Below are positions 9,319-23,804 of a DNA stretch of 32,000 nt, one piece after another. Location: the NCBI RefSeq assembly GCF_000189295.2, contig NC_016803.1, forward strand, positions 1,560,001-1,592,000, given 5' to 3'. Numbering within the stretch: the stretch's first letter is position 1; the number at the start of each line of letters is the position of its first letter. Below the pieces are notes generated by a model. That model saw only the letters and a program-made list of their open reading frames with translations, was not told the DNA's origin and searched no databases. Source of the stretch: Pseudodesulfovibrio mercurii (GTDB taxonomy: Bacteria; Desulfobacterota; Desulfovibrionia; Desulfovibrionales; Desulfovibrionaceae). The translations under genes were made by a program, and so were the position numbers.

Positions 9319-10706
9319 GCGCACTCCTTGCTTTGCCCGCCCGCGAGGGGAGGATGCGTCGTCGGTCGGCCCCGTCGCCGGGGAAGGTCCAGGCAGGCCA
9401 GGGCGCAACGGGCGAACAGCTCCACCCCGGGGGCCAGGCAGGCCTCGTCGAAATCGAAACGGGGGTTGTGGTGCCCGGCGGCCAGGTCGCTGCCGAGCAT
9501 GAGGTACGCCCCCAGGCCGCCCTGGGCCTGGACCGCGTCGAGCATCAGGGCGAAGTCCTCGCTGGCGCGCATGTCTGCCCGGTCGCGGATGTCGGTGAAG
9601 CGGCCCATGGCCTCGGCCGCGCGGCGCACCACGGCCGCCGCCTCCGGGTCGCTCCGGCCGCCCGGTGACCGACCCTGGACCGTGATCTCGTGGTCCACGC
9701 CGTACATCATGGCCGCCCCGGCGACCACCTCCCGCGCCCGCTCGAAGACGAACCGGTCGATCTCGGTGGTCCGGCCGCGCGTTTCGGCCTCGATCACCGC
9801 CCCGGCCGGGATGACGTTGCGCCCCTGGCCCGCGTGCAGCGTGCCCACGGTGATCCGCGAGGTCCCCTGGCCGTGGCGCGGAATGGCGTGCAGGTTCAGG
9901 GCCGCGTTGGCCGCGGCCAGCAGGGCGTTGCGCCCCTGCTCCGGGGCCGCCCCGGCATGGGCCGCCACCCCGGTAAAAGCAACGTCGAACTTGGTGGTGG
10001 CCAGGAACCCCTCCACGCCGCAGACCAGCTGCCCGGTCCGGGGGGCGCGCAGGCCGATATGCCCGCCCAGGAGGTAGTCCACGCCGTCGAGCACGCCCGC
10101 GTCGACCATGGGCCCGGCCCCGCGCACGCCCTCCTCGCCGGGCTGGAAGATCAGCCGGACCGTGCCGTGCAGCCGGTCCCGGAGCTCGGCCAGCAGTTCG
10201 GCCACACCCAGCCCTATGGCCGTGTGCCCGTCGTGGCCGCAGGCGTGCATGGCCCCCGCGTTGACCGAGGCGAACCCCACGCGGTGGGGCCGGTGGCCGT
10301 TGTCGCGGGCCTCGTCCAGATCGTTGGCGTCCATGTCGAAGCGCAGGGCCACCACCGGGCCGGGGCCGCAGTCGAGTTCCCCCACGACCCCGGTCAGGCC
10401 GTCAGCCATGCGTGCGATGAGGTCCGGATCGCCGCCCTGGGCCACGGCCCGGTCCATGTGGACCGCCAGCTCCCGGGCCGGGGGCGCGCCGAACATGGAC
10501 TCGCGGCGCACCGCGTCCCCGCCCAGGCGCACCGCGTACCCGGCCTCGGCCAGGGCCCGCGCCACCAGGGAGGCGGTCCGGAACTCGGTCCAGGCCGTCT
10601 CGGGATACCGGTGCAGGTCCCGCCGCCGGGCGATGAGCCCGTCCTTCATCCCGGCCGCCATCCCGGCCGCCAGCCGTACATTTTCCATGGTCGCGTGATC
10701 CGTCAT
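9315..10706 (-). CDS. M20-family amidohydrolase (M20D; AbgA/hippurate-hydrolase/aminoacylase-like)
   Basis: Trimmed to the ATG at 10706 (MTDHATMENV...) with GGGAGGAAG upstream, giving 463 aa. Motifs HRYPE, MHACGHDGH and FQPGEEG are typical of M20D amidohydrolases. Confidence 0.8.
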   Translation of the reverse strand: MTDHATMENVRLAAGMAAGMKDGLIARRRDLHRYPETAWTEFRTASLVARALAEAGYAVRLGGDAVRRESMFGAPPARELAVHMDRAVAQGGDPDLIARMADGLTGVVGELDCGPGPVVALRFDMDANDLDEARDNGHRPHRVGFASVNAGAMHACGHDGHTAIGLGVAELLAELRDRLHGTVRLIFQPGEEGVRGAGPMVDAGVLDGVDYLLGGHIGLRAPRTGQLVCGVEGFLATTKFDVAFTGVAAHAGAAPEQGRNALLAAANAALNLHAIPRHGQGTSRITVGTLHAGQGRNVIPAGAVIEAETRGRTTEIDRFVFERAREVVAGAAMMYGVDHEITVQGRSPGGRSDPEAAAVVRRAAEAMGRFTDIRDRADMRASEDFALMLDAVQAQGGLGAYLMLGSDLAAGHHNPRFDFDEACLAPGVELFARCALACLDLPRRRGRPTTHPPLAGGQSKECA

Positions 10707-10792: not shown

Positions 10793-10823
10793 AAAACGGC
10801 CCGGAAGGTCATCCTTCCGGGCC
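10793..10823 (-). terminator. Rho-independent terminator after the His-rich gene
   Basis: The minus strand reads GGCCCGGAAGG-atga-CCTTCCGGGCC followed by GTTTTGCG. This is a perfect 11-bp GC-rich stem, 38 nt after the stop at 10861. Confidence 0.6.
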
Positions 10824-10860
10824 GTCGGTTTCGTCCGCGCCGGGCCGTCGCGCCCGTTGC

Positions 10861-11157
10861 CTAATCGTGGCTGTGGCCGTGCCCGTCGCCGCCGTCGTGG
10901 GCGTGGCCCTCGTCGTGGCTGTGGGTGCCGTGGCCGTGCTTGTGCTCGCCCTCGACCCCGTGCTCATGCCCGTGCTCATGCTCATGGCTGTGCACGTGGC
11001 AGTGTTCATGGGTATGGGTGGTGCCATCCTCGTGGGTGTGCTCGTGCACGTGAGCGTGTTCGTGCTCATGTTCGTGCATATGCCCGCCCTTGTCACCGTG
11101 GGCGTGCTTGTGGGCCACCTTGTCCTTGCCGGTGTTGCAACCGCAGTCCTTGCACAT
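10861..11157 (-). CDS. Histidine-rich metal-binding protein with HypB-like N-terminal MCxxCGC motif and no GTPase domain
   Basis: Trimmed from ORF 10861-11286 to the ATG at 11157, with AAGGAGGA 5 nt upstream. The 98-aa product is MCKDCGCNTGKDKVAHKHAHGDKGGHMHEHEHEHAHVHEH...GHGHSHD. By my count 32 of 98 residues are His, mostly at alternating positions. It has its own terminator (10793-10823). Confidence 0.8.
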   Translation of the reverse strand: MCKDCGCNTGKDKVAHKHAHGDKGGHMHEHEHEHAHVHEHTHEDGTTHTHEHCHVHSHEHEHGHEHGVEGEHKHGHGTHSHDEGHAHDGGDGHGHSHD

Positions 11158-11349: not shown

Positions 11350-12582
11350 TCAGTCCAGACCCGCCACGTAGTCCATGATGGCCTGGGCCGAACGTTTGGA
11401 GCGGCTCACGGCCTCGGCCACGGTCTTGGCCCCGGTGACCACGTCGCCCGAGGCGAACACGCCCTCGCGGGTGGTCCGGCCGTCCTCGTCGGTGATGATC
11501 AGGCCGGTCTTGCCCACCTCCAGGCCCACCAGGTTGGAGCGCGGGGCCTGGCTGACCGCGATGAAGGTCGAGTCGGCCTCGAACAGGAACTCCGAGCCCT
11601 CCACGGGCTCCACGCGGTTGCGGCCGTCCTCGCCCTCCACGACCCGCGTTTCCACGCAGATCACGCCCTGTTCGGTCAGTTCCTCGGGGGAGGTGTGGAA
11701 GCGGAAGCGGACCCCGTCCACCTTGGCGTACTCGTATTCGTATTTGGTGGCGGTCATGTCCGCCTCGCCCCGGCGGTAGAGCACGGTGACCTCGCGGACG
11801 CCCTTGCGCAGGGCGGTCCGGGCCACGTCCATGGCCACGTTGCCCGCGCCGATGACCGCGACCCTCGGTCCCAGGTTGTAGACGCCGGGATTCTGGAGAT
11901 AGTGGATGGCGTAATGCACGTTGCCCAGGGTCTCGCCCTTGAGGCGCAGCGGCTTGGGGTTCCAGACCCCGGTGCCGATGAAGATCGCACGGTAGTCGTC
12001 GCGGAACAGGTCGTCGATGCCGATGACCGGCCCGATGAGCGTGTTGGGCCGGATCTTCACGCCCAGGCCCAGGAGCTTTTCCTTGAGCTTCTCGAGGATG
12101 TCCTTGGGCAGGCGGAAGTCCGGGATGCCATACTGGAGCACCCCGCCGATCCTCTCCTTGGACTCGAACAGGGTCACGTCGAACCCCTGGCGGGCCAGGA
12201 TGATGGCCACGGTGATCCCGGCCGGGCCGGACCCGATGATGGCGATGCGCTTGCTGTTGTTGCCGTTTGCCGGGCGCTCGGGCTGGAACTGCTCCAGGTA
12301 GTAGCGGGAGATGTACTGTTCGATGCTGCTGACCTGGACCGGCGCGCCCTTTCTGCCCAGGACGCAGTGTCCCTCGCAGAACCGTTCGTGCGGGCAGATC
12401 AGCGAACAGACCGCGGTCAGGGGGTTGTTGTCGAACAACAGCGCGCCCGCCTTGCGCATGTCGCCCGCGAGCAGGGCCTCGACCATGAGGTTGGCCGGGG
12501 TGGAGACGGGACAGCCCTTGCTGCACAACGGCTTCTTGCACTGGAGGCAGCGCGCCGCCTCTTCGATGATGTGTTTGCCCAT
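11350..12582 (-). CDS. GltD/NfnB/SudA-like FAD- and NAD(P)-dependent oxidoreductase with N-terminal Fe-S cluster motifs
   Basis: Trimmed to the ATG at 12582 (MGKHIIEEAARCLQCKKPLCSKGCP...) with AGGAAGGA upstream, giving 410 aa. Cys motifs CLQCKKPLCSKGCP and CSLICPHERFCEGHC. Two Rossmann motifs, IAIIGSGPAG and VAVIGAGNVAMD. GDV..G near the C-terminus. Confidence 0.85.
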   Translation of the reverse strand: MGKHIIEEAARCLQCKKPLCSKGCPVSTPANLMVEALLAGDMRKAGALLFDNNPLTAVCSLICPHERFCEGHCVLGRKGAPVQVSSIEQYISRYYLEQFQPERPANGNNSKRIAIIGSGPAGITVAIILARQGFDVTLFESKERIGGVLQYGIPDFRLPKDILEKLKEKLLGLGVKIRPNTLIGPVIGIDDLFRDDYRAIFIGTGVWNPKPLRLKGETLGNVHYAIHYLQNPGVYNLGPRVAVIGAGNVAMDVARTALRKGVREVTVLYRRGEADMTATKYEYEYAKVDGVRFRFHTSPEELTEQGVICVETRVVEGEDGRNRVEPVEGSEFLFEADSTFIAVSQAPRSNLVGLEVGKTGLIITDEDGRTTREGVFASGDVVTGAKTVAEAVSRSKRSAQAIMDYVAGLD

Positions 12583-12992
12583 TCCTGTTCCTTCCTGGTT
12601 GTCGATATGACCCGGCACGCCGGACAGACAGATGGTCCTACAGGAACTCCGGAAAACGCGCAATTCCCGCATGTCCGTTAGACCGCCGGGTCATTCTGAT
12701 CCGGCGGTACCCCCGAAACGGGGCACATGACCCCAGGAGTCCCGCCGAGCGGCGGCCAAAAGCGGTCGATTCACCCCGGTTGTCCCGGTCCGGCACGGTT
12801 CGCCAACATCTTTGATTTACGTAATATTCCCGACCATACCGGGAGAAAACGCCCCGCCTTCGCCGCCGGACCGTGCGGCTGGTCCCGGAATTGCCGGGCG
12901 AACCCATTCGGCGCCACCCTTTGCCGGAAAGGAAGGCCGCCCGACCATGGCGCCGCCGTCCGGGGCAGTTCCGCCCCCTTCCGCTGATGAGA

Positions 12993-13023
12993 ATACATCG
13001 ATCAATAGAATGCTCCGATGTAT
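12993..13023. repeat. 8-bp inverted repeat ATACATCG-N15-CGATGTAT in an AT-rich island upstream of the receptor promoter
   Basis: Read directly: arms at 12993-13000 and 13016-13023. The island stands out against the GC-rich surroundings. Confidence 0.4.
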
Positions 13024-13037
13024 ATTGGTATGTTCAA

Positions 13038-13077
13038 TCGAGCATAATAATTGACATGTCCTGTCGAGCATAATAAT
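13038..13077 (+). promoter_or_regulatory. Two identical 14-bp direct repeats (TCGAGCATAATAAT) with 26-bp period, bracketing a candidate sigma-70 promoter for the receptor operon
   Basis: Repeats at 13038-13051 and 13064-13077. A perfect TTGACA at 13051-13056 lies between them. AATAAT (13072-13077, 15-nt spacing) lies inside repeat 2. This would give a leader of about 140 nt before the ATG at 13225. Confidence 0.4.
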
Positions 13078-13224: not shown

Positions 13225-15195
13225 ATGAAATGCTCTCGACTGCTGCTGCTCATCGGACTGTTCGTCGCGCTCTGCGCCACGCCGTCCCTCGCCCAGGACG
13301 GGGACGGCAAAACCCAGGACAAGGCCGAGTACACCCTCGGTGAAGTCGTTGTCAGCGACTCGTCCAGCGTCCTGGAGAAATCGACCACGGTGACGGAGAT
13401 CACCGGAGAGGAACTGAAGAACGCCGGGGCCCTGACCCTGGCCGACGCCTTCAAGATGGTGCCCGGCGTGACCACCCGCACCGCGGCCGACGGCACCTGC
13501 CGCATCGACATCCGCGGCATGCGCACCCGGAACATCAAGCTGCTGCTCAACGGCATCCCGTTCCAGTCCGTGCTGGACGGCCAGTTCGACCCGGACGCCA
13601 TCCCGGTGGAGAACATCGCCCGCATCAAGATCACCCGCGGCGCGTCCTCGGTGCTCTACGGCAACGACGGCAACGCGGGCGTCATCGACATCATCACCAA
13701 GAAGGGTACCAAGGATTTTAAGGGAACGGCCGGCGCCATGGCCGGCCAGGGCGATCTCTACAAGCTCCAGACCACCATCGCGGGCGGCATGGACAAGCTG
13801 GACTACTACATGGGGGCCAGCTACCTGACGCGCAACGGCTACCCGGTCTCCTCGGACTTCGACAATACCCTTTACCAGGACTCGGACCTGCGCAAAAACA
13901 GCGACCGCGAACACGTCAACGTGCTCGGCAACATGACCTACCAGGCCAGCGACAGCACCAGCTTCGGCGCGGTCCTCAACCTGTTCGAGGGTGAGTACGG
14001 CAAGCCGCCGTCCACCATCAAGGGCAGCGCCACCGACCCGTTCGCCAAGACGCCCAAGTACGAGCGCGTCCTGGACTACAGCGGCGCGGACGCGCAACTG
14101 GCCATGAACCACGAGTTCAACAAGACCGTGGACACCCGGTTGATGATCTACGCCAGCCGCGAGTACAACGAGACCTCGCGCTACGACGACGACAACTACG
14201 ACACCCAGACCAAGAAGGGCTCGTTCCACAGCAAGTCCACGTCCACCACCCTGGGCCTGAACAACCAGTGGGGCTACAACACCGACTCCTTCGGCCGGTT
14301 CGTCCTGGGCCTCATCGGCGAGCGCCAGAACTGGAGCGAGAACGGCTTCACCCGGATCAACAACACCACGTCCGGGCCGCTCGACGCCGACGAGACCCTG
14401 AGCAACTACGTCGTCGCCCTCCAGGACGACGTGTCGCCGCTCAATGACCTCCAGGTCTCCCTCGGCCTCAGCCTCAACGGCCAGGCCCGGAGCTACAAGA
14501 CGTTGAACACCTACTCCTACGTGCTGGCGGCCAATTACCAGCTCTTCGAGGGCACCAACATCAAGGCCTCCCAGGCCCGCAAGATCCGCAACCCCTCGAT
14601 CCAGAACCTGTATGACTCCGTCGCGGGCAACGCCGATCTGACCAACGAGATCAACTGGCTGTACGAGGTGGGCATCTCCCAGGCCCTGCCCCTGGCCTCC
14701 ACCCTGGACTTCACCGTGTTCCGGAACGATTCCGAGAACTACATCGAAAAAGTGGGCGACGTTTACCAGAACCACGACAAGTACCTCTTCCAGGGCTTCG
14801 AGACCACCCTGTCCTCCCGCCTGGCGGAAGGACTGTCCACCCAGTTGGGCTACACCTACCTGGACAGCCAGAACCTCTCGGACGACGCCCAGACGCACAA
14901 GCTGCAATACCGGCCGCGCCACAAGATCACCGCCCAAGGCACCTGGGTGGCCCCCACGAAGACCACGATCTTCGCCGGGTGGCGCTTCTTCTCCGACCAG
15001 TGGACCATCGAAGGGTCCGAGACCAAGCACATGCCCGACTACGGGCTGGTGGACATCAAGATCAGCCAGGCGTTCACGGACGCCCTGTCAGTCTACGTCG
15101 GCGCGGACAACCTGTTCGACGTGGACTACGAAGAGTCCTACGGCTTCGCCCGGCCCGGGCGCGTCGTCTACACGGGGCTGGACTACACGTTCTAG
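13225..15195 (+). CDS. TonB-dependent outer-membrane receptor (small, BtuB/CirA size class)
   Basis: Trimmed from ORF 13051-15195 to the ATG at 13225 with GAGGAA 5 nt upstream, giving 656 aa. Signal peptide MKCSRLLLLIGLFVALCATPSLA. TonB-box-like GEVVVS. Plug motifs IDIRGM and VLYGNDGNAGVIDIITKKG. Barrel end GRVVYTGLDYTF with terminal Phe. Confidence 0.9.
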   Translation: MKCSRLLLLIGLFVALCATPSLAQDGDGKTQDKAEYTLGEVVVSDSSSVLEKSTTVTEITGEELKNAGALTLADAFKMVPGVTTRTAADGTCRIDIRGMRTRNIKLLLNGIPFQSVLDGQFDPDAIPVENIARIKITRGASSVLYGNDGNAGVIDIITKKGTKDFKGTAGAMAGQGDLYKLQTTIAGGMDKLDYYMGASYLTRNGYPVSSDFDNTLYQDSDLRKNSDREHVNVLGNMTYQASDSTSFGAVLNLFEGEYGKPPSTIKGSATDPFAKTPKYERVLDYSGADAQLAMNHEFNKTVDTRLMIYASREYNETSRYDDDNYDTQTKKGSFHSKSTSTTLGLNNQWGYNTDSFGRFVLGLIGERQNWSENGFTRINNTTSGPLDADETLSNYVVALQDDVSPLNDLQVSLGLSLNGQARSYKTLNTYSYVLAANYQLFEGTNIKASQARKIRNPSIQNLYDSVAGNADLTNEINWLYEVGISQALPLASTLDFTVFRNDSENYIEKVGDVYQNHDKYLFQGFETTLSSRLAEGLSTQLGYTYLDSQNLSDDAQTHKLQYRPRHKITAQGTWVAPTKTTIFAGWRFFSDQWTIEGSETKHMPDYGLVDIKISQAFTDALSVYVGADNLFDVDYEESYGFARPGRVVYTGLDYTF

Positions 15196-15220: not shown

Positions 15221-16564
15221 ATGTCGGCACATCTGCGCCTGCGGGAACTGAGCATACGGTTCAACGACCGAACACCGCCGGTCCTCACCGGAGTCAATCT
15301 CTCGGTGGGGGCCGGCGAATGCCATTGCATCGTCGGTCCCACCGGAAGCGGCAAGTCCAGCCTCCTGCTGGCCGCCGCGGGCCTGCTCCCCCCCGAGGCC
15401 CTGAACGGGGCGATGGAGCGCACCGGACGGGCCGGCACCGTGTTCCAGAATCCCGGCACCCAGATCCTCTTCGACCACGTGGGTCCTGAGACCGCCTTCG
15501 CCCTGGAGAACGCGGGCGTCGATCCCGCCGCCATGCCGGACAAGGTCGCCCGCGCCCTGGCCGAGGCGGATCTGCCCGTGCCCACCCACACCCCGACCTC
15601 CAGCCTGTCCATGGGACGCCAGTACCGCCTGGTCCTGGCCGGGGCCCTGGTCACGGAACCGGGGCTGCTCCTGCTCGACGAGCCCTGCGCCCAGCTCGAC
15701 CCGGACGGCTGCCGCGCCGTGGCCGGGGTGGTGGACGCCGTCCTGAAGCGGGGCGGCGGCGTGCTCCTGTGCGAGCACCGGCCCGATCCCCTGGCGGCGC
15801 ACATCACCCACTGGTGGCGCATCGAGGACCACGGGCTGCGCCCGTCCGAGCCGGTCCTCGCCCCGGCCCCGCCGCCGCGCGCGGCGAACCGGCCGACCGA
15901 CGGGACCGGACCGGCCCTGCTGGAGGTCTGGGACCTGTCCCTCCGGCGGGGGGACCACCAGGTCTTTTCCGGCCTCGACCTGACCATCCGGCCGGGCGAG
16001 GCCGTGCACGTGGAGGGCGGCAACGGCAGCGGCAAGTCCACCCTGACCCGCATCCTGGCCGGGTTCCTGGCCCCGGACGCGGGCACCGCGACCCTGTTCG
16101 ACCAGCCCGTGGCCCCGGCCCGGCTGCGCGGCCGGGTGGGCCTGGTCCTGCAAAGCCCTTCCAGCCAGCTCTTCGAGGACACGGTCCTGCGCGAGCTGGC
16201 CTACGCGGCCCGGCGCAAGGGACTGGACGACCCCGAGGGCCGGGCCCGGTGCGCGGCCAAGGCGCTGGGCATCAGCGACCTGCTGGACCGCGCCCCGTTC
16301 CTGCTCAGCTACGGCCAGCAGCGGCTGACCGCCCTGGGGGCGTGCCTGACCCAGGAGCCGGACCTGCTCCTGCTGGACGACCCCTTCGCCGGGCTGGACC
16401 GGGAGGCCCGCGAGCGGGTCCACGGCGTGCTCGACGCGGAGCGCGCCCGGCGCGGCATGGCCGTGCTGGTCACGGGTCACAACCCGACCTCTTCCCTTCG
16501 TTTCGCCGATTTCTATACCCGCGAGCTGCGGATTTCAGGGGGCCGTCTTGAACCCGTGGCCTGA
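15221..16564 (+). CDS. Fused double ABC ATPase (EcfA/CbiO-like A-A fusion)
   Basis: 447 aa with AGGAG upstream. NBD1 has GPTGSGKSS, LSMGRQ, LLLLDEP and CEH. NBD2 has GGNGSGKST, LSYGQQ, LLLLDDP and TGH. It is followed by an EcfT-like gene rather than a type I/II permease. Confidence 0.8.
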   Translation: MSAHLRLRELSIRFNDRTPPVLTGVNLSVGAGECHCIVGPTGSGKSSLLLAAAGLLPPEALNGAMERTGRAGTVFQNPGTQILFDHVGPETAFALENAGVDPAAMPDKVARALAEADLPVPTHTPTSSLSMGRQYRLVLAGALVTEPGLLLLDEPCAQLDPDGCRAVAGVVDAVLKRGGGVLLCEHRPDPLAAHITHWWRIEDHGLRPSEPVLAPAPPPRAANRPTDGTGPALLEVWDLSLRRGDHQVFSGLDLTIRPGEAVHVEGGNGSGKSTLTRILAGFLAPDAGTATLFDQPVAPARLRGRVGLVLQSPSSQLFEDTVLRELAYAARRKGLDDPEGRARCAAKALGISDLLDRAPFLLSYGQQRLTALGACLTQEPDLLLLDDPFAGLDREARERVHGVLDAERARRGMAVLVTGHNPTSSLRFADFYTRELRISGGRLEPVA

Positions 16565-17249
16565 ACCGTCCGCGCGCCCGGCCCGCTTCAGGCCCCCGGC
16601 CTGGCTCATGCTCATCCTCTGCCCGGTGCTGTCGCTCCTGGCCGTGGTCTGGCACGGACCGTGGTCCATGCCGGTCCTGGCCGTGATCGAGGGCGGGCTG
16701 CTGCTGATCTCGCGGCCCGGCCCGCGCCGTCTGCTGCGCCTGGCCATGGCCTGCTTCTGGCAGATCGCGGTGGTCACGGGGCTGTACTGCCTGCGCTTCG
16801 GCCCAGGCGAGTGGCGCGGCGGACTGGACGTGTCCCTGCGCCTGATCCTGGTCTTCGTGCCGGGCATGCTGACCGTCCGCCTGGTGCCCCCGGCCGCCCT
16901 GGAACGGATCCTCAAGCGCATCCTGCCCGGCAACCTGCCCTTCGTGGCCGCCTGCTGCCTGCGCTTCTTCCCCCTGCTCATCGAACGCGTGCGCGTCATC
17001 CACGAGGCCCAGGTCCTACGCGGGGCGCGGGTGCTGCCGCGCGAATTGCTCAACCCGCGCAACTGGCCCGACGCCGTGTCCTGCATCGGCCTGCCCGCCG
17101 TGCTGCAAAGCATCGAGCTGGCCACGGAGATCGCGGACAGCGCCAAGGCCAGGGGGTTCTCCATGCGCGGCAACCGCACGGCCTGGCCCCTTGACGAAGC
17201 ACAACGCCACGCGGAGGCCGAGGCCGCCGCAGAGGAGTCCCTCCCTTGA
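16548..17249 (+). CDS. ECF transporter T component (EcfT/CbiQ-like)
   Basis: 233 aa with TTG start at 16548 after AGGGGG; an alternative ATG lies at 16608. Overlaps the ATPase gene by 17 nt. Five or so hydrophobic helices. Two Ala-Arg-Gly-type coupling motifs (AQVLRGAR and SAKARGFS), characteristic of T components. Confidence 0.7.
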   Translation: MNPWPEPSARPARFRPPAWLMLILCPVLSLLAVVWHGPWSMPVLAVIEGGLLLISRPGPRRLLRLAMACFWQIAVVTGLYCLRFGPGEWRGGLDVSLRLILVFVPGMLTVRLVPPAALERILKRILPGNLPFVAACCLRFFPLLIERVRVIHEAQVLRGARVLPRELLNPRNWPDAVSCIGLPAVLQSIELATEIADSAKARGFSMRGNRTAWPLDEAQRHAEAEAAAEESLP

Positions 17250-17812
17250 CCGACAACGCCCCTTACAACGGTCCCTCCACCGCCCTGCGGGACACCCTGC
17301 TCATGGGCTTCTGCGCCCTGTTCCTGCTGGCCACCAAGATGGTCCTGCGCCTGAACCTGGGCATTCCGGGCCACGCCATGTTCTTCACCATCTTCTTCCT
17401 GATCCTGCCCAGGGCGGTGACCGGGCTGAAGTTCGCGGCCACGGCCACGGGTCTGGCGGCGGGCCTGGCCTCGGTGCTGCTCGGCATGGGCAAGGGCGGC
17501 CCCCTGCTGCTGCTCAAGTTCCTGTTCCCGTCCCTGTGCGTGGACCTGGCCTTCCTGTTCTTTCCCGGCCTGGGCGGCTCGCTGCTCTTCTGCGCCCTGG
17601 TCGGATTCATCGCGGCCGCCACCCGCATCATCGGCGTGGCGGTCACGGACTGGCTGGTGGGCATGGACCCCGAGATCATCATGGCCCACGCCTTCCTCAA
17701 GACCCTCGGCGGCGCCCTGTTCGGGGCGCTGGGCGGCCTGGCCGTCGCACCCATCATCCGTAAACTCAAGGCACGGGGCCTTCTCCCCGCGACCCCACAA
17801 CCAAGAGGCTGA
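17246..17812 (+). CDS. Small six-helix integral membrane protein; candidate ECF substrate-capture (S) component of unknown family
   Basis: 188 aa. The TTG start at 17246 overlaps the upstream TGA (TTGA) and AGAGGAG lies 8 nt upstream. I count six hydrophobic segments. Size and position after A and T genes fit an S component. It lacks the CbiM/NikM MHIxxG N-terminus. Confidence 0.5.
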   Translation: MTDNAPYNGPSTALRDTLLMGFCALFLLATKMVLRLNLGIPGHAMFFTIFFLILPRAVTGLKFAATATGLAAGLASVLLGMGKGGPLLLLKFLFPSLCVDLAFLFFPGLGGSLLFCALVGFIAAATRIIGVAVTDWLVGMDPEIIMAHAFLKTLGGALFGALGGLAVAPIIRKLKARGLLPATPQPRG

Positions 17813-17813
17813 C

Positions 17814-18548
17814 ATGCGCTACTATCTCTGCATCGACGACACCGACAACCTGGAGACCAAGGGCACCGGCTGGCTGGCCGAACAGGCCTGCAACGAGATG
17901 AAGGACCTGGGGCTGGGCTCGTTCTCGGCCATCAGCCGCCACCAGCTCTTCGTCCACGAGGACGTGCCCTACACCTCGCACAACAGCTCCATGTGCATGG
18001 AGATGGAGGAGTGCGGCGACCCCGAGGCGGTCATCCGCTACATGCAGGCCTTCCTCGAACGCAACGGCGCGCCCGGCTCCGACCCCGGCCTGTGTCTGGT
18101 CCCCGAGACCCTGTCCGGCGAGGCCAGGGAGCGGCTCATCCGCTTCGGCAACGACGCCAAGTGCACGGTGCTGAACAAGGGACTGGCCTACGGCTTGGCC
18201 GGTGAGCTGGGCGTGCACCTGTCCGAGCACGGCGGCACGGGCGACGGCGTGGTCGGCGCCCTGGCGGGCGTGGGCTTGCGCATGGGCGGCCAGGACGGCC
18301 GCTACCGGAGCTGGATGCACCTGGGGCCCGACGGCACGGTCATGCCCGCGGGCGAGGTCGCCCGGCTGTGCGGGGCCCATCACGTCCAGGACGAGGCGGA
18401 CGCGGTCCTGGCCGACGAGACCCCGGTCCTGCTCCAGGAGCAGATCAAGCTCATCCGCCGCCACGGCCAGGCCGTGCTCCTGGCCCGCCCCGACAACGGG
18501 AACGGGACCATGCGCCTGCTGCACAAGAAGGAATTGAAGATTTACTGA
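17814..18548 (+). CDS. Soluble protein with TiaS N-terminal kinase-domain-like motifs (IDDTD...T18); function unknown
   Basis: 244 aa with ATG at 17814 and AAGAGG upstream, 2 nt after the previous stop. The N-terminus MRYYLCIDDTDNLETKGTGWL and the later GTGDGVVGALAGVG resemble remembered archaeal TiaS (MRVWVGIDDTDSSRGMCTTYL ... GRGLIGALAAVG). No signal peptide or transmembrane segment. Confidence 0.45.
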   Translation: MRYYLCIDDTDNLETKGTGWLAEQACNEMKDLGLGSFSAISRHQLFVHEDVPYTSHNSSMCMEMEECGDPEAVIRYMQAFLERNGAPGSDPGLCLVPETLSGEARERLIRFGNDAKCTVLNKGLAYGLAGELGVHLSEHGGTGDGVVGALAGVGLRMGGQDGRYRSWMHLGPDGTVMPAGEVARLCGAHHVQDEADAVLADETPVLLQEQIKLIRRHGQAVLLARPDNGNGTMRLLHKKELKIY

Positions 18549-18589: not shown

Positions 18590-19426
18590 ATGAAGACCCG
18601 CCTCCGCCTGTTCGCCGCTCTGTTCCTCCTGCTCCCGCTCTGCGCGGGAGTCCTGGCCGAGCGCCCCGCCCACGCTGGGGACGAGGCTATCCCGGCCGCA
18701 CGGACGCGGGTGGAGGATTCGGCGCGCCGTGCCGGGACCGCCGGGGTCCGGGCCGAGAAATGGGCCGCCGAGCGCGAAGGCCTGCTCGACGAGGCCCGCC
18801 AGCTGCTTTACGACACCGAGGCGGACCGTTTCGCCGTGGCCCGGCAGGAGGCGTACATCGCCCGCGAACGGGCGGACATCAAGGAGCTCGGGGAACGCAC
18901 GGACGCGGCCCTGGCCACCCGGCGCGATCTGGACCGGGTCATGGAGACCCTCTACGCGGCCCTGGTCCGGGCGCGTGACCGGGACCTGCCCTTTGCCGAG
19001 GACGAGCGGAGGGCCAGGCTGGCCGCCCTGCGCCGGACCCTGGACGACCCCGACGCCCCGTCCGGCGAAAAGCTCGGCCGTCTGCTGGAGGCCCTGCGCA
19101 TGGAGGCGGGCTACAGCCTCGACGTGGAGGCCGAGGACGCGGTCATGCAGGTGCGCGGCGCGCCCATGGCCGTGACCGTGCTGCGCGCGGGCAGGCTGGC
19201 CCTGCTGCGCATGCCCGCCTCGGGCGCGTGGGTCGAACGGTTCGAACCGGCCTCGGCCGAGTGGGTCGAACTGCCCGGAGCCGACGGCCGCGAGCTGGTC
19301 AAGGCGGTGCAGATAGCCCGCAAGCAGCGCATCGCGGAGCTGATCTACCTGCCCGTGGGCCACGGAGCCCAGCCGACCGAATCGCAGTCCGCCGCCCAAA
19401 CCGCACAGACCGGGGAGGCGCAATGA
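18590..19426 (+). CDS. Periplasmic coiled-coil protein, DUF3450/TtpB-like first gene of a TonB2-type cluster
   Basis: Trimmed from ORF 18368-19426 to the ATG at 18590 with AAGGA upstream, giving 278 aa. Signal peptide MKTRLRLFAALFLLLPLCAGVLA. The central region is charged and heptad-like. The assignment rests on position and size immediately before a TtpC-like gene. Confidence 0.6.
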   Translation: MKTRLRLFAALFLLLPLCAGVLAERPAHAGDEAIPAARTRVEDSARRAGTAGVRAEKWAAEREGLLDEARQLLYDTEADRFAVARQEAYIARERADIKELGERTDAALATRRDLDRVMETLYAALVRARDRDLPFAEDERRARLAALRRTLDDPDAPSGEKLGRLLEALRMEAGYSLDVEAEDAVMQVRGAPMAVTVLRAGRLALLRMPASGAWVERFEPASAEWVELPGADGRELVKAVQIARKQRIAELIYLPVGHGAQPTESQSAAQTAQTGEAQ

Positions 19427-20868
19427 TCCGCCTTGCCCGCCGCCCGATTGTTTTTCCGATCCTCCGCCTGCGGCTCTGCCCGGCCCTGTGGCTGCTCCTC
19501 TGTCTCGCCGTGGCCGTTCCGGTCCTGGCCCGAACGGCTCGCGCGGCGGACGACGCCACAGCCCGCCTGGACGGCCTGGCCCGGGACATGACGGCCCGGA
19601 CCGGGGCCGTGAACAAACTCCTCGACCTGGACCGCGATCAACTCCGCACAAAGGTGGCCGCCCTGCGCAAGGCCCGCGACGCAGAGCGGGCCCGGCTGGA
19701 CAAGGCCGTGGCCGAACTGGCCCGGCTGCGCGGCGAGCGCGCGGAGCTGGCCGCCCGATACGACGCCGTGGCCGGGGAGATGCGCGCGGTGGAGGACGCG
19801 GTCCGGTCCAACGCGGCCCAGGCCCGCACCCTGCTCGCGGCGAGCGCCCTGACCTCCCTGGTTCCGGACCGCCTGGCCCCCCTGGACCGCGTGGCCCGGT
19901 CCCGCGACTTTCCCGGCCTCCCGACCATCACCGGTCTGGGAGGGCTGCTCCTGGACGAGATCCGCTCCGGAGCCACCGCCGAGACGCGGCCGGGGACCTT
20001 CCTCGGCCCGGACGGCCGGACGCGGACCGGCGGCCTGCTGCGCGCGGGCAGCCTGTTTCTCGGAGCCCGCGACGAGGACGGCCGGACCTGCCTGCTGACT
20101 CCCGGCTCCACGCCGCCGCAGGCCGTGGCCGCCACGCCCGGCGAGGCGGAAAAGGCCATGGCCGCCTGGGCCGACGGCGCGGGGCAGGTCCTGCCCGTGG
20201 ACCCGTCCCACGGCGCGGCCCTGTCCCTGCTTCAGGCCCGGCGCACCCTGGACGACTGGGTCCAGGGCGGCGGCCTGCTCCTGTGGCCCATCCTGGTCAT
20301 CGGCCTGGCCGCCCTGCTGGTGGTCTTCTACAAGGGCGCGCGCCTGTTCCTGGCCCGGCCCTGCCCCAGGGATTTCGCTCTGCGGTTGCGCACGGCCTGG
20401 GACGCGGACGGCCCGTCCGGTCTGACCCGGCTGCTGAAATCCCTGCCGCGCACCCCGGCGGCGCGGGTCCTGCTCTGGGCCGCTCCCGACGCCGACCCGG
20501 AGCTCCGGGACAAACGGCTCCAGGAGGGGTTCCTGGCCGAGCTGCACCGGCTGGAAAGCGGGCTGGGCTTCATCGCGGTCATGGCCGCCGTGGCCCCGCT
20601 CCTCGGCCTGCTCGGCACGGTCACGGGCATGATCGACTCCTTCCAGGCCGTGACCGTGTTCGGCACGGCCAACCCCCGGATCATGTCCAGCGGCATCAGC
20701 GAGGCGCTGATCACCACCCAGGCAGGCCTCGGCGTGGCCATCCCGGCCATGCTCCTGCACCAGTTCCTCAAGCAGCGAGTCCAGGGGCTGGCCTCGGACA
20801 TGGAGCAGCAGTGCGCGGCCTTCCAGGCCCTGCTCGCCGCGAACCCGGACAAGGACGGCGCGGCATGA
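19423..20868 (+). CDS. MotA/TolQ/ExbB-family proton-channel protein with a long N-terminal periplasmic coiled-coil domain (TtpC-like)
   Basis: Trimmed to the ATG at 19423, which forms an ATGA overlap and has GGGGAGG upstream, giving 481 aa. N-terminal signal/anchor, then a soluble region of about 250 aa. The C-terminus carries the family signature APLLGLLGTVTGMIDSF...GISEALITTQAGL. Confidence 0.8.
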   Translation: MIRLARRPIVFPILRLRLCPALWLLLCLAVAVPVLARTARAADDATARLDGLARDMTARTGAVNKLLDLDRDQLRTKVAALRKARDAERARLDKAVAELARLRGERAELAARYDAVAGEMRAVEDAVRSNAAQARTLLAASALTSLVPDRLAPLDRVARSRDFPGLPTITGLGGLLLDEIRSGATAETRPGTFLGPDGRTRTGGLLRAGSLFLGARDEDGRTCLLTPGSTPPQAVAATPGEAEKAMAAWADGAGQVLPVDPSHGAALSLLQARRTLDDWVQGGGLLLWPILVIGLAALLVVFYKGARLFLARPCPRDFALRLRTAWDADGPSGLTRLLKSLPRTPAARVLLWAAPDADPELRDKRLQEGFLAELHRLESGLGFIAVMAAVAPLLGLLGTVTGMIDSFQAVTVFGTANPRIMSSGISEALITTQAGLGVAIPAMLLHQFLKQRVQGLASDMEQQCAAFQALLAANPDKDGAA

Positions 20869-21410
20869 CCGGCCTGCTGCGGACCGTGCTCGACTTCGTC
20901 CACGCGGGCGGCGCGACCATGGCGCCCCTGCTGCTGTGCTGCCTGGCCATGTGGTATCTCATCCTGCGCGCCTGGCTCGACCTCCTGCCCGCATCGGCGG
21001 GCGGCCTGCGGGCCGAGCTGGAACAGACCTTCGCCCGGCTCTGCCCCGGCCCCGGTCCGGGGGACGCCGACCTGGCCGACGCCCTGGCCGAGGGCGTGCG
21101 CGCCCGTACCCGGCGCAGGCTCTCCCTGGCCGCCGTGTTCGCGGCCGCCGCCCCCCTGCTCGGCCTGCTCGGCACGGTCACGGGCATGATCGAGACCTTC
21201 GACGGCGTGGCCCGCTTCGGCTCGGCCTCGCCCCAGGTCCTGTCCTCGGGCATCAGCCAGGCCATGATCTCCACCCAGACCGGCCTGGTGGTGGCCGTGC
21301 CCGGCCTCATCGCCGTGTATTTCCTGCGCCGCCGCGCCCTGCGCCTGCACATCCGCCCGGAACGCGCACGCCCCGCCGTCCACGCCGTGACCGGAGGCGT
21401 CGCGCCATGA
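20865..21410 (+). CDS. exbB: ExbB-type proton-channel protein (short form)
   Basis: ATG at 20865 (ATGA overlap), 181 aa. Signature APLLGLLGTVTGMIETF...GISQAMISTQTGL. Confidence 0.85.
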   Translation: MTGLLRTVLDFVHAGGATMAPLLLCCLAMWYLILRAWLDLLPASAGGLRAELEQTFARLCPGPGPGDADLADALAEGVRARTRRRLSLAAVFAAAAPLLGLLGTVTGMIETFDGVARFGSASPQVLSSGISQAMISTQTGLVVAVPGLIAVYFLRRRALRLHIRPERARPAVHAVTGGVAP

Positions 21411-21844
21411 GAATCCTGCGCCGCGCCCAACGCGACGAGTCCGTGGACATCAACGTCGCCCCCATGGTGGACATGATCTTCATCCTGCTCATCTTCTTCC
21501 TGGCCACGGCCAGCTTCGTGCGCGAGAGCGGTGTGGACGTGCAGCGGCCTGCGGCGGCCAGCGCCGAGACCTCGGCGGACGAGGCCCTGATTATCGGGGT
21601 CACCGCCCAGGGCGCGCTGTCCATCGAGGGCGAGCGGCTGGACATCCGGGCCCTGCGCCCGCGCATGGAGCGGTTCGTGGCCGAACGCCCGGGCGGGCCC
21701 GTGGTCGTGGTCGCGGACCGGGACTGCCCCACGGGCATCACCGTGCGCGTGCTCGACGCCTGCCGTCTGGCCGGGGTGCGCTCGGTCAGCCTGGGGGCGC
21801 GGGCCGTGAAGGACGGATACGCTCCGGCCGGGGCGGCCCCATGA
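21407..21844 (+). CDS. exbD: ExbD/TolR-family biopolymer transport protein
   Basis: ATG at 21407 (ATGA overlap, GGAGG upstream), 145 aa. INVAPMVDMIFILLIFFL membrane anchor, typical of ExbD. Confidence 0.9.
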   Translation: MRILRRAQRDESVDINVAPMVDMIFILLIFFLATASFVRESGVDVQRPAAASAETSADEALIIGVTAQGALSIEGERLDIRALRPRMERFVAERPGGPVVVVADRDCPTGITVRVLDACRLAGVRSVSLGARAVKDGYAPAGAAP

Positions 21845-22485
21845 CCATGGGCAAGCCGCTGATCGCCCTGACGGGCGCGACGGCCGTGACCCTGGCCTTC
21901 TGCCTGCTCATCCCCCTGCTCGGCACGGTGCGCCACGCGGACGCCCCCATACTCCGGGACGACCCCGTGCCCGTGGCGGCCATGCCGCCCGAGACAAGAC
22001 ATCCGACCGAGGCGGGCGCGCCGGGCAGCATGGCCCGCGCCCTGCCGAGCGCGCCCCGGACACCGGCCGCGCCCCTGACCCTGCCAGCCTTGCAGGGACC
22101 GTCCGACATGCCCCTCCCGGCCCTGGAAGGGGAGCCCGAGTCCCTGGGATTGTCCATGAACGCGCCCGAGGGGCCTGGAGCCGTGCCCGCCGGGCCGGGC
22201 GACCCCGTCTTCGACCAGCCGCCGCGCGTGCTGACCCGGCTGGACCCGTACTATCCGGCGTCCGCCCGGCGCACCGGCACCCAGGGCCACGTCCTGGTCC
22301 GGGCCCTGGTGGACGAATACGGCCGGGTGACCGAGACCGAGGTGGTCGAGTCCGAACCGGCGGGCGTGTTCGACGAGGCGGCCCTCAAGGCCGTGCGCGG
22401 CTGGACCTTTGCCCCGGCCCGGCGCCGGGGAGAGCCCGTGGCCGTGCGCATCGACATCCCCATACGCTTCAGGCTGGACCGATGA
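21841..22485 (+). CDS. tonB: TonB energy transducer
   Basis: 214 aa (ATGA overlap). N-terminal anchor, Pro-rich linker, and a C-terminal domain YPASARRTGTQGHVLVRALVDEYGRV...AALKAVRGWTFAPA. Confidence 0.85.
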   Translation: MTMGKPLIALTGATAVTLAFCLLIPLLGTVRHADAPILRDDPVPVAAMPPETRHPTEAGAPGSMARALPSAPRTPAAPLTLPALQGPSDMPLPALEGEPESLGLSMNAPEGPGAVPAGPGDPVFDQPPRVLTRLDPYYPASARRTGTQGHVLVRALVDEYGRVTETEVVESEPAGVFDEAALKAVRGWTFAPARRRGEPVAVRIDIPIRFRLDR

Positions 22486-23804
22486 CCCGCCCCCGCCGCC
22501 ACGCCGCCCTCACGCCTTTCGCCCTGGCCCTGGTCCTGTGCCTGGGCCTCGCCCTGGGCCTGCCCGGTCCGGCCCGGGCGGGCCGCGCGCGGGACGACCG
22601 CCTGGGCCCGGCACAGTATGCCGCCGTGACCGAGGCGCGGGAGCTGATGGAACAGGGCGACCCGGCCGGAGCGGCGCAGCGGCTCCTGCCCGTGGCCGAC
22701 GAGGCGCGCCCGCCCCTGGTGGTCCTCGACCACCTGGCCTGGGCCCAGGAGCGGGCCGGTGCCCATGACGCGGCCCTGGTCACCTACCGCAGGGCCGCCG
22801 GTCTCTACCCGAACGACCCCGGCACGGCGCGCAACCTGGGCATCCTGCTGTTCAACCGCCAGCGGTTCGCCGAGGCGGCCCCGGCCCTGGAACGGGCCTA
22901 CGGCCTGCAACCCGAGGAGGGGCGCGAGCCCACCCTGCTGGCCATGGCCGGATCGGCCCAGGCCCGCATGCACCGCTTCCCCCAGGCCCTTGGCCTGCTG
23001 GACCGCGCCGAGACCACCGAGCCCGCCGCGCCCGTGTCCTGGACCGCCATGTCCGCCTACTGCTGCCTGCGACTGGACAGAACGGACGCGGCCCTGGCCC
23101 GCTGCCGCGCCTGCGCCCGACGCCATCCCCGCGACCCGGCGGCCTGGTCCCTGCTCGGCCGGGTCCTGGCCCGCCACGGCGACCCGCTCGCGGCCGCGTC
23201 CGCCCTGGAGACCGCCCGCGCCCTGCGCCCCGACGGCCGGGCCGCGCCGGACGAATACCGTGAGCTGGCCGCCCTGTACGCCCTGGGCCACGCCCACGCC
23301 GAGGCGGCCCGCTGCCTGGCCGCCGCCGACGAGCCCGGCACAACCCTGCGCCGGGCCGAACTGCTCCGCCTGAACGGCCGGAACCGGGAGGCCCTGGAAG
23401 CCCTGGACCGGTTCGACCGGGAGCGGGCCGCAAACACCGCAACCGGCCCGACCGTCACCCCCGAGGACGTCCTGCGGGCCGCCCTGTTGCGCGGCCGCAT
23501 CCTCCGGGACCTGGGCCGCACCGGGGAGGCCGTGGACGGGCTGCTGGCGTCGGCGCGTCCCCCTGCCGCCGATCCGGGGCGGACCGTGCAGCGCCTGCGG
23601 GGAGCCCTCCTGCTCCTGGCCGGGGAGCTGCGCTGGGGCGAGGGCGACTGGACCGGCGCGGCGCGCATCTTCGACGACCTCGCCGCCGTGCCGGGCTACG
23701 CCGACACCGGCGCGTCCCTGGCCGAGGGCATGCGGGCCATGGTCCGCGAGGCCGCCCTAGCCCCGGCCCCGCTCTCCCCCTCGTCGTTGACAGCCGCGCC
23801 CTGA
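22482..23804 (+). CDS. Exported tetratricopeptide-repeat protein (TtpD-like last gene of the TonB2-type cluster)
   Basis: 440 aa (ATGA overlap). Signal peptide ...LALVLCLGLALGLPGPARA. Repeated Ala/Leu/Arg-rich helical pairs such as AEAAPALERAYGLQPEE and PLAAASALETARALRPD. Confidence 0.7.
   Translation: MTRPRRHAALTPFALALVLCLGLALGLPGPARAGRARDDRLGPAQYAAVTEARELMEQGDPAGAAQRLLPVADEARPPLVVLDHLAWAQERAGAHDAALVTYRRAAGLYPNDPGTARNLGILLFNRQRFAEAAPALERAYGLQPEEGREPTLLAMAGSAQARMHRFPQALGLLDRAETTEPAAPVSWTAMSAYCCLRLDRTDAALARCRACARRHPRDPAAWSLLGRVLARHGDPLAAASALETARALRPDGRAAPDEYRELAALYALGHAHAEAARCLAAADEPGTTLRRAELLRLNGRNREALEALDRFDRERAANTATGPTVTPEDVLRAALLRGRILRDLGRTGEAVDGLLASARPPAADPGRTVQRLRGALLLLAGELRWGEGDWTGAARIFDDLAAVPGYADTGASLAEGMRAMVREAALAPAPLSPSSLTAAP

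Follow-up and report, generated by a model that had tools for sequence, protein, structure and literature searches.

The DND132_1416 operon and its promoter

DND132_1416 (17814-18548, + strand) is a gene of Pseudodesulfovibrio mercurii ND132, located in the 32-kb stretch of the genome analyzed here (hereafter the window). It encodes a stand-alone protein of 244 aa resembling the Thr18-Cyt34 kinase domain (TCKD) of TiaS, the archaeal tRNA(Ile2) agmatidine synthetase. The gene starts with an ATG (N-terminus of the product, MRYYLCIDDTDNLETKGTGWL), and the protein lacks a signal peptide and is therefore expected to be cytoplasmic. Residues 1-157 correspond to the TiaS-type kinase fold and residues 158-244 to a small alpha/beta domain specific to the family. 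An initial annotation, made from the sequence alone, had described the gene as lying between an energy-coupling factor (ECF) importer and a TonB2 system, 2 nt after the preceding gene. Pfam matches bear out the importer upstream and the TonB2 system downstream, but the start codon is only 1 nt past the stop of the upstream gene, which ends at 17812.

The genes upstream, all on the + strand, begin with a TonB-dependent outer-membrane receptor (13225-15195; Plug and beta-barrel, Pfam PF07715/PF00593), probably initiated at the ATG at 13225, from which a signal peptide (MKCSRLLLL...) is read. Its NCBIfam matches, to siderophore, BtuB and haem families, were every one far under the cutoff. The receptor gene is followed by those for a fused ECF-type A-A' ATPase with two ABC domains (15221-16564; two Pfam ABC_tran matches, NCBIfam ECF_ATPase_1/2 and cbiO) and for an ECF T component, the transmembrane scaffold, of the CbiQ family (16548-17249; Pfam PF02361, E=1.8e-9). 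The last gene before DND132_1416 (17246-17812) encodes a hydrophobic protein of 188 aa, the putative ECF S component that would capture the substrate. It had no match in Pfam, NCBIfam or PDB sequences, and is 41-54% identical to its orthologues in ECF-type loci, among them L037 and L046, two Geomonas operons under riboswitch control that are discussed below. The importer to which it belongs may be the first of the ECF type for tungstate/molybdate or some related compound.

Downstream, a TonB2-type energizing module continues on the + strand. It opens with a DUF3450 protein (18590-19426; Pfam PF11932, E=2.9e-45), followed by a large ExbB-like proton-channel protein (19423-20868; Pfam MotA_ExbB, E=2e-30), a second, short ExbB-like protein (20865-21410; MotA_ExbB, E=5.9e-23), ExbD (21407-21844; ExbD, E=2.3e-29), TonB (21841-22485; TonB_C, E=7e-24) and, as the last member, a TPR protein (22482-23804; multiple TPR Pfam families).

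The promoter region of the operon (13038-13077, + strand) carries a -35 element, TTGACA, at 13052-13057. It is flanked by an exact 14-nt direct repeat, TCGAGCATAATAAT, at 13038-13051 and 13064-13077, the second copy lying over the likely -10; these two occurrences compare with 0.03 expected by chance. A promoter core, TTGACATGT-N6-GAGCATAATA, is kept (at 9870-9905) 5' of the orthologous gene in 'Desulfovibrio caledoniensis' (locus L001), the closest other genome, in which the TCKD-like protein is 81% identical. In that locus the TCKD-like gene comes directly after the promoter and the 4.7-kb block of receptor and ECF genes is absent, so that the gene stays constant while the importer block varies. 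A GltD-like NAD(P)H Fe-S flavoprotein (Pyr_redox_2 and Fer4_20) is encoded divergently from the operon promoter in the window (11350-12672, - strand) and in L001 (8502-9818, - strand). A site at 13016-13040 that resembled an Escherichia coli ModE box by eye was rejected, as only one half matches. Long antisense open reading frames (ORFs) run over real genes across the high-GC window (for example 17766-18524, - strand) and in L001, and are compositional artifacts; longest-ORF gene calling was misled by them in L001, L002 and Geomonas, where tblastn and Pfam were used.

Homology to the TiaS kinase domain

Alone, DND132_1416 had no match in Pfam, gave a chance match only in a single-sequence search of the PDB, and matched NCBIfam weakly, with methanogenesis marker 11 at E=3e-4 and TiaS at E=3e-3. 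When a profile of 34 homologues was compared with PDB sequences, the TiaS entries 3AU7/4RVZ/3AMT were retrieved at E~2e-5, with positions 1-157 of the query aligned to TiaS 1-153, exactly the TCKD. The pairwise alignment with Archaeoglobus fulgidus TiaS showed 28% identity over 160 residues (E=8e-8). An AlphaFold (AF2) model of the protein (pLDDT 89.8, pTM 0.86) was searched against the PDB with Foldseek, and the nine best matches were all TiaS, the best with E=4.8e-9 over 158 columns at a root-mean-square deviation (rmsd) of 2.4 A; the first match after these nine structures had E=4.6e-3. Pfam PF22641 (TiaS_TCKD) was matched by 27 of the 34 homologues, with a best E-value of 1.1e-6, and the NCBIfam models of TiaS and methanogenesis marker 11 by all 34. 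The profile and structure searches that the initial annotation had proposed as a check thus gave significant matches to the N-terminal domain of TiaS, and with profile, pairwise, Foldseek and NCBIfam matches in agreement, DND132_1416 is almost certainly a stand-alone homologue of the TCKD. The UniRef cluster of DND132_1416 already bears the name TiaS, as do several family members. The likeness was therefore visible in databases beforehand, and it is the biological role that seems to be unreported.

The first 30 residues aligned to TiaS without gaps in the profile and pairwise comparisons alike, and therefore D8, D9, T10, D11 and T18 coincide with TiaS residues, as the initial annotation had stated. 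Autophosphorylation of TiaS is reportedly the subject of a 2011 paper by Terasaka et al. (cited in PMC11938285). The residue phosphorylated is Thr18, and the chemistry of the enzyme is reported to have been worked out that year by Terasaka et al. and by Osawa et al. The Gly-rich GxGxGxxGALAxVG segment, the second element thought to be shared, was aligned with TiaS in both comparisons too: G140-G-T-G-D-G-V-V-G-A-L-A-G-V-G154 corresponds to KKGRGLIGALAAVGA of TiaS and, within it, G145-x-x-G-A-L-A-x-V-G154 to GLIGALAAVG. Conservation was examined in 123 representatives, each 30-45% identical to DND132_1416. D8, T10 and D11 are present in 100% of them and D9 in 99%, whereas T18 is found in 96% and every exception is a Ser. 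R42 (98%), T54 (99%), N57 (100%) and G148 (100%) are equally well kept, so that the DDTD, T18 and Gly-loop residues on which the annotation relied, at 96-100%, hold throughout the family; the lack of conservation that would have refuted the annotation is clearly not what is seen. Other invariants belong to the family and are not found in TiaS, namely H43, Q44, S55, H56 and S58, which fall within R42-H43-Q44 and Y53-T54-S55-H56-N57-S58. C94 is conserved in 78%.

The C-terminal 87 residues are modeled with confidence as a small alpha/beta domain (pLDDT 84.5), for which no relative was found in the PDB with Foldseek (best E=0.57). A molbindin/TOBE fold and the ferredoxin-like (FLD) or OB domains of TiaS were both considered for this region and ruled out, as neither gave a structural match. 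No zinc ribbon of the CxxC type was found in the sequence, in line with the initial annotation, which had seen no zinc ribbon or tRNA-binding extension. Lacking TiaS-like domains to bind tRNA, the protein is unlikely to modify tRNA.

A word-indexed search recovered 2,561 proteins of this family; 338 clusters at 50% identity had E<=1e-30, and there were at least 557 genome hits. The hosts are Desulfobacterota, Clostridia, Bacilli, Geobacterales, Kiritimatiellales and some Gammaproteobacteria. We regard the family as a third branch of the TCKD superfamily, a bacterial one, beside TiaS and marker 11. A 2026 survey of NTP-processing folds describes the TCKD superfamily as ATP-processing and pyrophosphate (PPi)-releasing, and gives the TiaS superfamily as archaeal only (PMC13397572); TiaS-type ATP chemistry is also covered in PMC11938285. 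In our literature search, we found no paper on the bacterial TCKD-like family, none that mentions the ND132 locus tags and none connecting TiaS-like proteins with molybdenum (Mo) or tungsten (W). A 2024 review of metallostasis holds nothing on such a system. One further paper (PMC13119186) was judged irrelevant, its subject being CbiMNQO and the B12 riboswitch.

Gene neighborhoods and riboswitch control

The distribution and neighborhood survey, which the initial annotation had also called for, revealed a family widespread in bacteria and located, in many cases, among W/Mo-type genes. A total of 80 loci were fetched and all neighboring ORFs clustered without prior labels. The commonest partners of the TCKD-like gene were an ABC ATPase (56 loci), a Peripla_BP_2 binding protein (39 loci) and a FecCD permease (35 loci). 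Orthologues of the window's TonB-dependent receptor, 34-44% identical, adjoin the gene in 31 loci, and T and S components of the window's type occur in about 10; the T orthologues are found in L004, L039, L046, L059, L072 and others, and orthologues of the A-A' ATPase in ECF-type loci are 35-44% identical. Some importer part is present in 73 of the 80 loci, and in four of the other seven the gene lies near a contig end. The importers found with the gene are MolA-like type-II ABC systems, ECF systems and dedicated TonB-dependent receptors. The gene is therefore not specifically tied to ECF importers: most loci are of the FecCD type, and some have no importer at all.

Taken alone, the FecCD, Peripla_BP_2 and TonB partners would point to a cargo resembling siderophores, haem or B12, but the riboswitches and the Mo/W neighbors speak otherwise. 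The best PDB match of the adjacent Peripla_BP_2 protein is MolA/HI_1472 (E=7.7e-29). A neighbor with the amino-acid-kinase fold, present in 11 loci, is a homologue of the molybdenum-storage protein MosB/MosA (E=3e-55), and MOT1 molybdate permeases, TupA-like proteins and MoaE occur in some loci. In loci without an adjacent ABC or ECF importer, the TCKD-like gene is paired with MosAB-like and/or MOT1 genes. Strict Mo/W markers were present in 30 of the 80 loci, and in 52 when the MolA-like proteins were counted. The Desulfobacterales layout consists of an optional TupA-like gene, the receptor, the TCKD-like gene, FecCD, ATPase and binding protein. In Firmicutes, a riboswitch is followed by a Big_5/LPXTG surface protein, FecCD, ATPase, binding protein and the TCKD-like gene, with a Shr-like HID/SLH protein and MOT1 as optional 3' genes. 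The riboswitch-controlled locus L057 (5010-10744, + strand) encodes MoaE, two TupA-like binding proteins, an ATPase, a MosB-like protein and the TCKD-like protein, and through it the family is connected with Tup-type import, the classical route for tungstate, too. Clostridial loci also hold a conserved, divergent block of genes (clusters c29-c35), for which biosynthesis of the molybdenum cofactor (Moco) was considered and rejected, as it encodes HutI-like, TrpS-like, TetR-like and similar housekeeping proteins.

The riboswitch was recognized with Rfam, RF01055 (the Moco riboswitch) being found in three of seven phylogenetically distant loci. A covariance model made from these elements, refined once and run over the 80 loci, gave 16 hits in 15 loci, all on the same strand as the TCKD-like gene. 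Fifteen of the 16 lie upstream of that gene, and no hits were obtained elsewhere in 1.3 Mb. The P3 hairpin is missing from all 16. The P3-less class was correlated with metabolism of the tungsten cofactor (Tuco) by Regulski et al. 2008, and the riboswitch senses the finished cofactor (PMC2408646). A cobalamin riboswitch was found in none of the eight sources scanned with Rfam. In Geomonas and Geobacter, the riboswitch is located 100-200 nt 5' of the TCKD-like gene. At L037 and L046, both from Geomonas, the genes that come next (ECF A-A', T, S and receptor) are orthologous to those of the window, with S components 46-47% identical. Locus L078 carries a second P3-less riboswitch (10793-10903, + strand) directly 3' of the TCKD-like gene and 5' of a five-gene cluster on the + strand, so that tandem riboswitch-controlled units occur within one locus.

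Additional associations were seen in some loci. Surface-protein genes lie under a P3-less riboswitch in L040 (6183-6980, 10801-12060), L065, L053, L035, L055 and L066, and the Firmicute set of cell-wall-anchored Big_5/LPXTG proteins and Shr-like HID and SLH proteins is like haem-capture systems, which suggests surface capture of some W/Mo species. In Petroclostridium (L062, 11142-13929, + strand), two genes for type-2 encapsulin shells (SrpI-like, with a cNMP-binding domain) are directly 3' of the TCKD-like gene. Two rare fusions, P0165 (826 aa; L081, 1769-4249), which is immediately 3' of a Peripla_BP_2 gene, and P0227 (922 aa), join the TCKD-like protein to an FAD-dependent oxidoreductase (DAO) and a BFD-like [2Fe-2S] domain. 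These fusions hint at an associated redox step; together with the GltD-like flavoprotein of the window, they may mark a redox partner or be a coincidence.

Proposed role in tungsten and molybdenum handling

The P3-less Moco/Tuco riboswitch in 15 of the 80 loci, together with the MolA-like, MosAB-like, MOT1, TupA-like and MoaE neighbors, very probably ties the family to W/Mo homeostasis. The window itself holds no such marker, and for this locus we infer a W/Mo role by orthology to the riboswitch-controlled Geomonas operons. The imported substrate, which the initial annotation had left open, would thereby be narrowed to tungsten or molybdenum, and the ATP-dependent activation of that substrate that it had envisaged is a reasonable inference from the conserved motifs. 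On balance, though with modest confidence, we favor a model where proteins of the DND132_1416 family are cytoplasmic components of W/Mo acquisition loci whose ATP processing activates or traps the incoming oxyanion. That such a protein is an ATP-using enzyme is probable, judging from its conserved residues, whereas the oxyanion itself as acceptor can be put forward only tentatively.

In ND132, DND132_1416 would be co-transcribed with the TonB-dependent receptor, the ECF importer with its novel S component and the TonB2-type energizer. The receptor would take tungstate and/or molybdate, or a small complex of either, across the outer membrane, and the ECF importer (a MolBC-A-type system elsewhere) would move the oxyanion across the inner membrane. 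The cytoplasmic TCKD-like protein could then bind ATP at the site formed by DDTD, T18, R42, T54-N57 and the Gly-loop. ATP would be cleaved as in TiaS with the release of PPi, and a phosphoryl or adenylyl group transferred, T18 being a possible phospho-acceptor. The oxyanion, thus activated or trapped, might be passed to a MoeA-type insertion for cofactor synthesis or to MosAB-type storage. MogA/MoaB, MoeA and ATP sulfurylase are precedents for ATP-derived activation around molybdate and tungstate, and in sulfate reducers an immediate sequestration of molybdate would spare its futile adenylylation by ATP sulfurylase.

Several observations weigh against this model. The equation of P3-less with Tuco is a bioinformatic correlation from 2008, by which ligand specificity is not demonstrated. 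No Moco riboswitch was found in the window with Rfam, run on the 32 kb, or with two custom covariance models. The Desulfovibrio box of the ModE/TunR type, CGGTCACG-N14-CGTGACCG, gave just two matches there, both with three mismatches, distant from the operon and no more than chance would give. No second recognizable Mo/W gene or Mo/W enzyme is encoded within the 32 kb, and the full-length loci L001 and L048 have no Mo/W marker nearby. The Ig-like and Shr-like HID/SLH proteins of Firmicutes hint that the ligand is bigger than the free oxyanion, and binding proteins of the MolA type have chelate binders among their relatives. Tungstate in a phosphorylated or adenylylated form would be highly labile. 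Finally, H43, Q44, S55, H56, S58 and C94 could form a metal or oxyanion site in a protein that is not an enzyme.

The last point leads to a model where the TCKD fold serves as a non-catalytic tungstate/molybdate-binding protein, an oxyanion chaperone, buffer or selectivity filter fed by the importer, with ATP at most allosteric. The family invariants, rich in Ser, Thr, His, Arg and Asn (R42-H43-Q44, T54-S55-H56-N57-S58), are like those of oxyanion sites, and the gene pairs with MosAB-like or MOT1 genes even where no ABC importer is present. However, the most conserved positions are DDTD, T18 (with Ser as the sole substitute) and the Gly-rich loop, the ATP-domain motifs of TiaS, which would be hard to explain in a chaperone without nucleotide chemistry, and the C-terminal domain is not of the molbindin/TOBE fold. 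We therefore regard this model as unlikely, though as the strongest of the alternatives. The enzyme could instead act on a pterin or cofactor, phosphorylating or adenylylating molybdopterin as a tungsten-specialized counterpart of MogA/MoaB, or re-activating a salvaged, imported pterin related to Moco/Tuco. The riboswitch ligand is the finished cofactor; TonB-dependent receptors, type-II ABC and ECF importers usually carry bulky cofactors, and Firmicute operons encode surface capture proteins. TiaS phosphorylates a pyrimidine ring carbonyl, Foldseek gave weak echoes of the pterin pyrophosphokinase HPPK (E~1e-2), and MoaE lies in the same operon in L057. But the HPPK matches are not significant, the binding protein is nearest to the oxyanion binder MolA, and the TupA-like, MOT1 and MosAB-like neighbors handle the free oxyanion. 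As we also know of no Moco-salvage pathway in bacteria, action on a pterin seems improbable.

Autophosphorylation of T18, a residue 96% conserved and otherwise Ser, is a property of TiaS that could make the protein a regulatory autokinase, reporting ATP or metal status and gating the importer or storage protein post-translationally, and the translational coupling of the gene to importer genes would fit such a role. Yet one and the same protein is found with importers of three different mechanisms as well as with storage proteins and MFS permeases, among which a common docking target is unlikely, and no partner domain is conserved, making this a distinctly improbable explanation. The cytoplasmic processing of an organic iron or cobalt ligand (siderophore, haem or corrinoid) delivered by generic TonB/ABC uptake would account for the FecCD/Peripla_BP_2 importers and TonB-dependent receptors, the classic carriers of such ligands, as well as for the below-cutoff receptor matches, the Shr-like HID domains of some loci and the two FAD/[2Fe-2S] oxidoreductase fusions. 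Against it stand the absence of cobalamin riboswitches in the sources scanned, with only the Moco class recovered, in 15 loci, and the Mo/W-specific nature of the other neighbors (MosAB, MOT1, TupA-like, MoaE and MolA-like); we consider it very improbable. The UniRef name and the TCKD homology would make the protein a genuine tRNA(Ile2) agmatidine synthetase, but with 16 bits instead of 600, 244 aa instead of 420, no FLD, OB or zinc ribbon, and bacterial hosts in which the gene has a metal-uptake context, this reading can practically be dismissed.

The findings bear on wider questions. The papers that we found on the TiaS kinase fold describe one archaeal tRNA-modifying enzyme only, and the bacterial branch has probably been recruited to a different process. 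The open problems touched are the acquisition of scarce W/Mo, the shielding of molybdate from ATP sulfurylase in sulfate reducers and the choice of W or Mo at cofactor loading; a conserved cytoplasmic protein with an ATP site, under Tuco-type riboswitch control, is a candidate for a missing W/Mo-handling step. The survey also flags uncharacterized partners: the TonB-dependent receptor family, the ECF S component and the Gram-positive surface proteins. The hosts take part in anaerobic carbon cycling, syntrophy, metal reduction and mercury methylation, and rely on W/Mo formate dehydrogenases and aldehyde oxidoreductases. In its boldest form, which we offer as a speculation rather more likely to fail than to hold, the model would comprise a new ATP-dependent activation of tungstate/molybdate just after import, committing the metal to cofactor or storage and perhaps aiding discrimination between W and Mo. 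These operons would then encode the first uptake routes for the two oxyanions that are TonB-dependent, and the first of the ECF type, and marker 11 would likewise serve the W/Mo formylmethanofuran dehydrogenases.

Among known systems, MolBC-A (HI1470/71/72 of Haemophilus influenzae), a type-II ABC importer of molybdate/tungstate, is represented by a MolA-like gene that adjoins the TCKD-like gene in 39 of the 80 loci, together with FecCD and ATPase genes. The window differs in having an ECF importer, and family loci add surface proteins or TonB-dependent receptors; we know of no TCKD-like partner for MolBC-A. MosA/MosB of Azotobacter vinelandii is an alpha/beta pair of the amino-acid kinase fold whose loading is ATP-dependent, whereas the 11 family loci with a MosAB-like neighbor have a single such gene and the window none. 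Moco synthesis (adenylylation by MogA/MoaB, insertion by MoeA) and the 'molybdolysis' of ATP sulfurylase are functional analogies only, the folds being unrelated: no likeness to MogA/MoaB, MoeA or ATP sulfurylase was detected in the PDB sequence, profile or Foldseek searches.

The closest known relatives are TiaS (PDB 3AMT, 3AMU, 3AU7, 4RVZ, 5XOB and 3U02) and marker 11. DND132_1416 and TiaS have in common the fold of about 158 residues, IDDTD, the T18 position, R42, PY-T-x-x-N, (N/D)PG and GxxGALAxVG. Against the model of TiaS proper (NCBIfam NF040849), however, DND132_1416 scores 16 bits for a cutoff of 600 and covers profile positions 1-153 of 422 only. TiaS holds its tRNA with ferredoxin-like, OB and zinc-ribbon domains; DND132_1416 has none of these and carries its unique 87-residue C-terminal domain instead. 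TiaS is archaeal and acts in translation, while the bacterial family is found in W/Mo uptake operons. Marker 11 (TIGR03280), a protein confined to methanogens and without an established function, is by a small margin a better match to the bacterial family than TiaS is. Its C-terminal half (137-282 of 292) was matched by all 34 homologues (best E=3e-14). DND132_1416 itself matched this half only, with 19.9 bits for a cutoff of 255.8, marker 11 having an extra N-terminal part of about 135 residues. Methanogens depend on W/Mo formylmethanofuran dehydrogenase, and by analogy it is conceivable that a role in W/Mo handling is common to marker 11 and the bacterial family.

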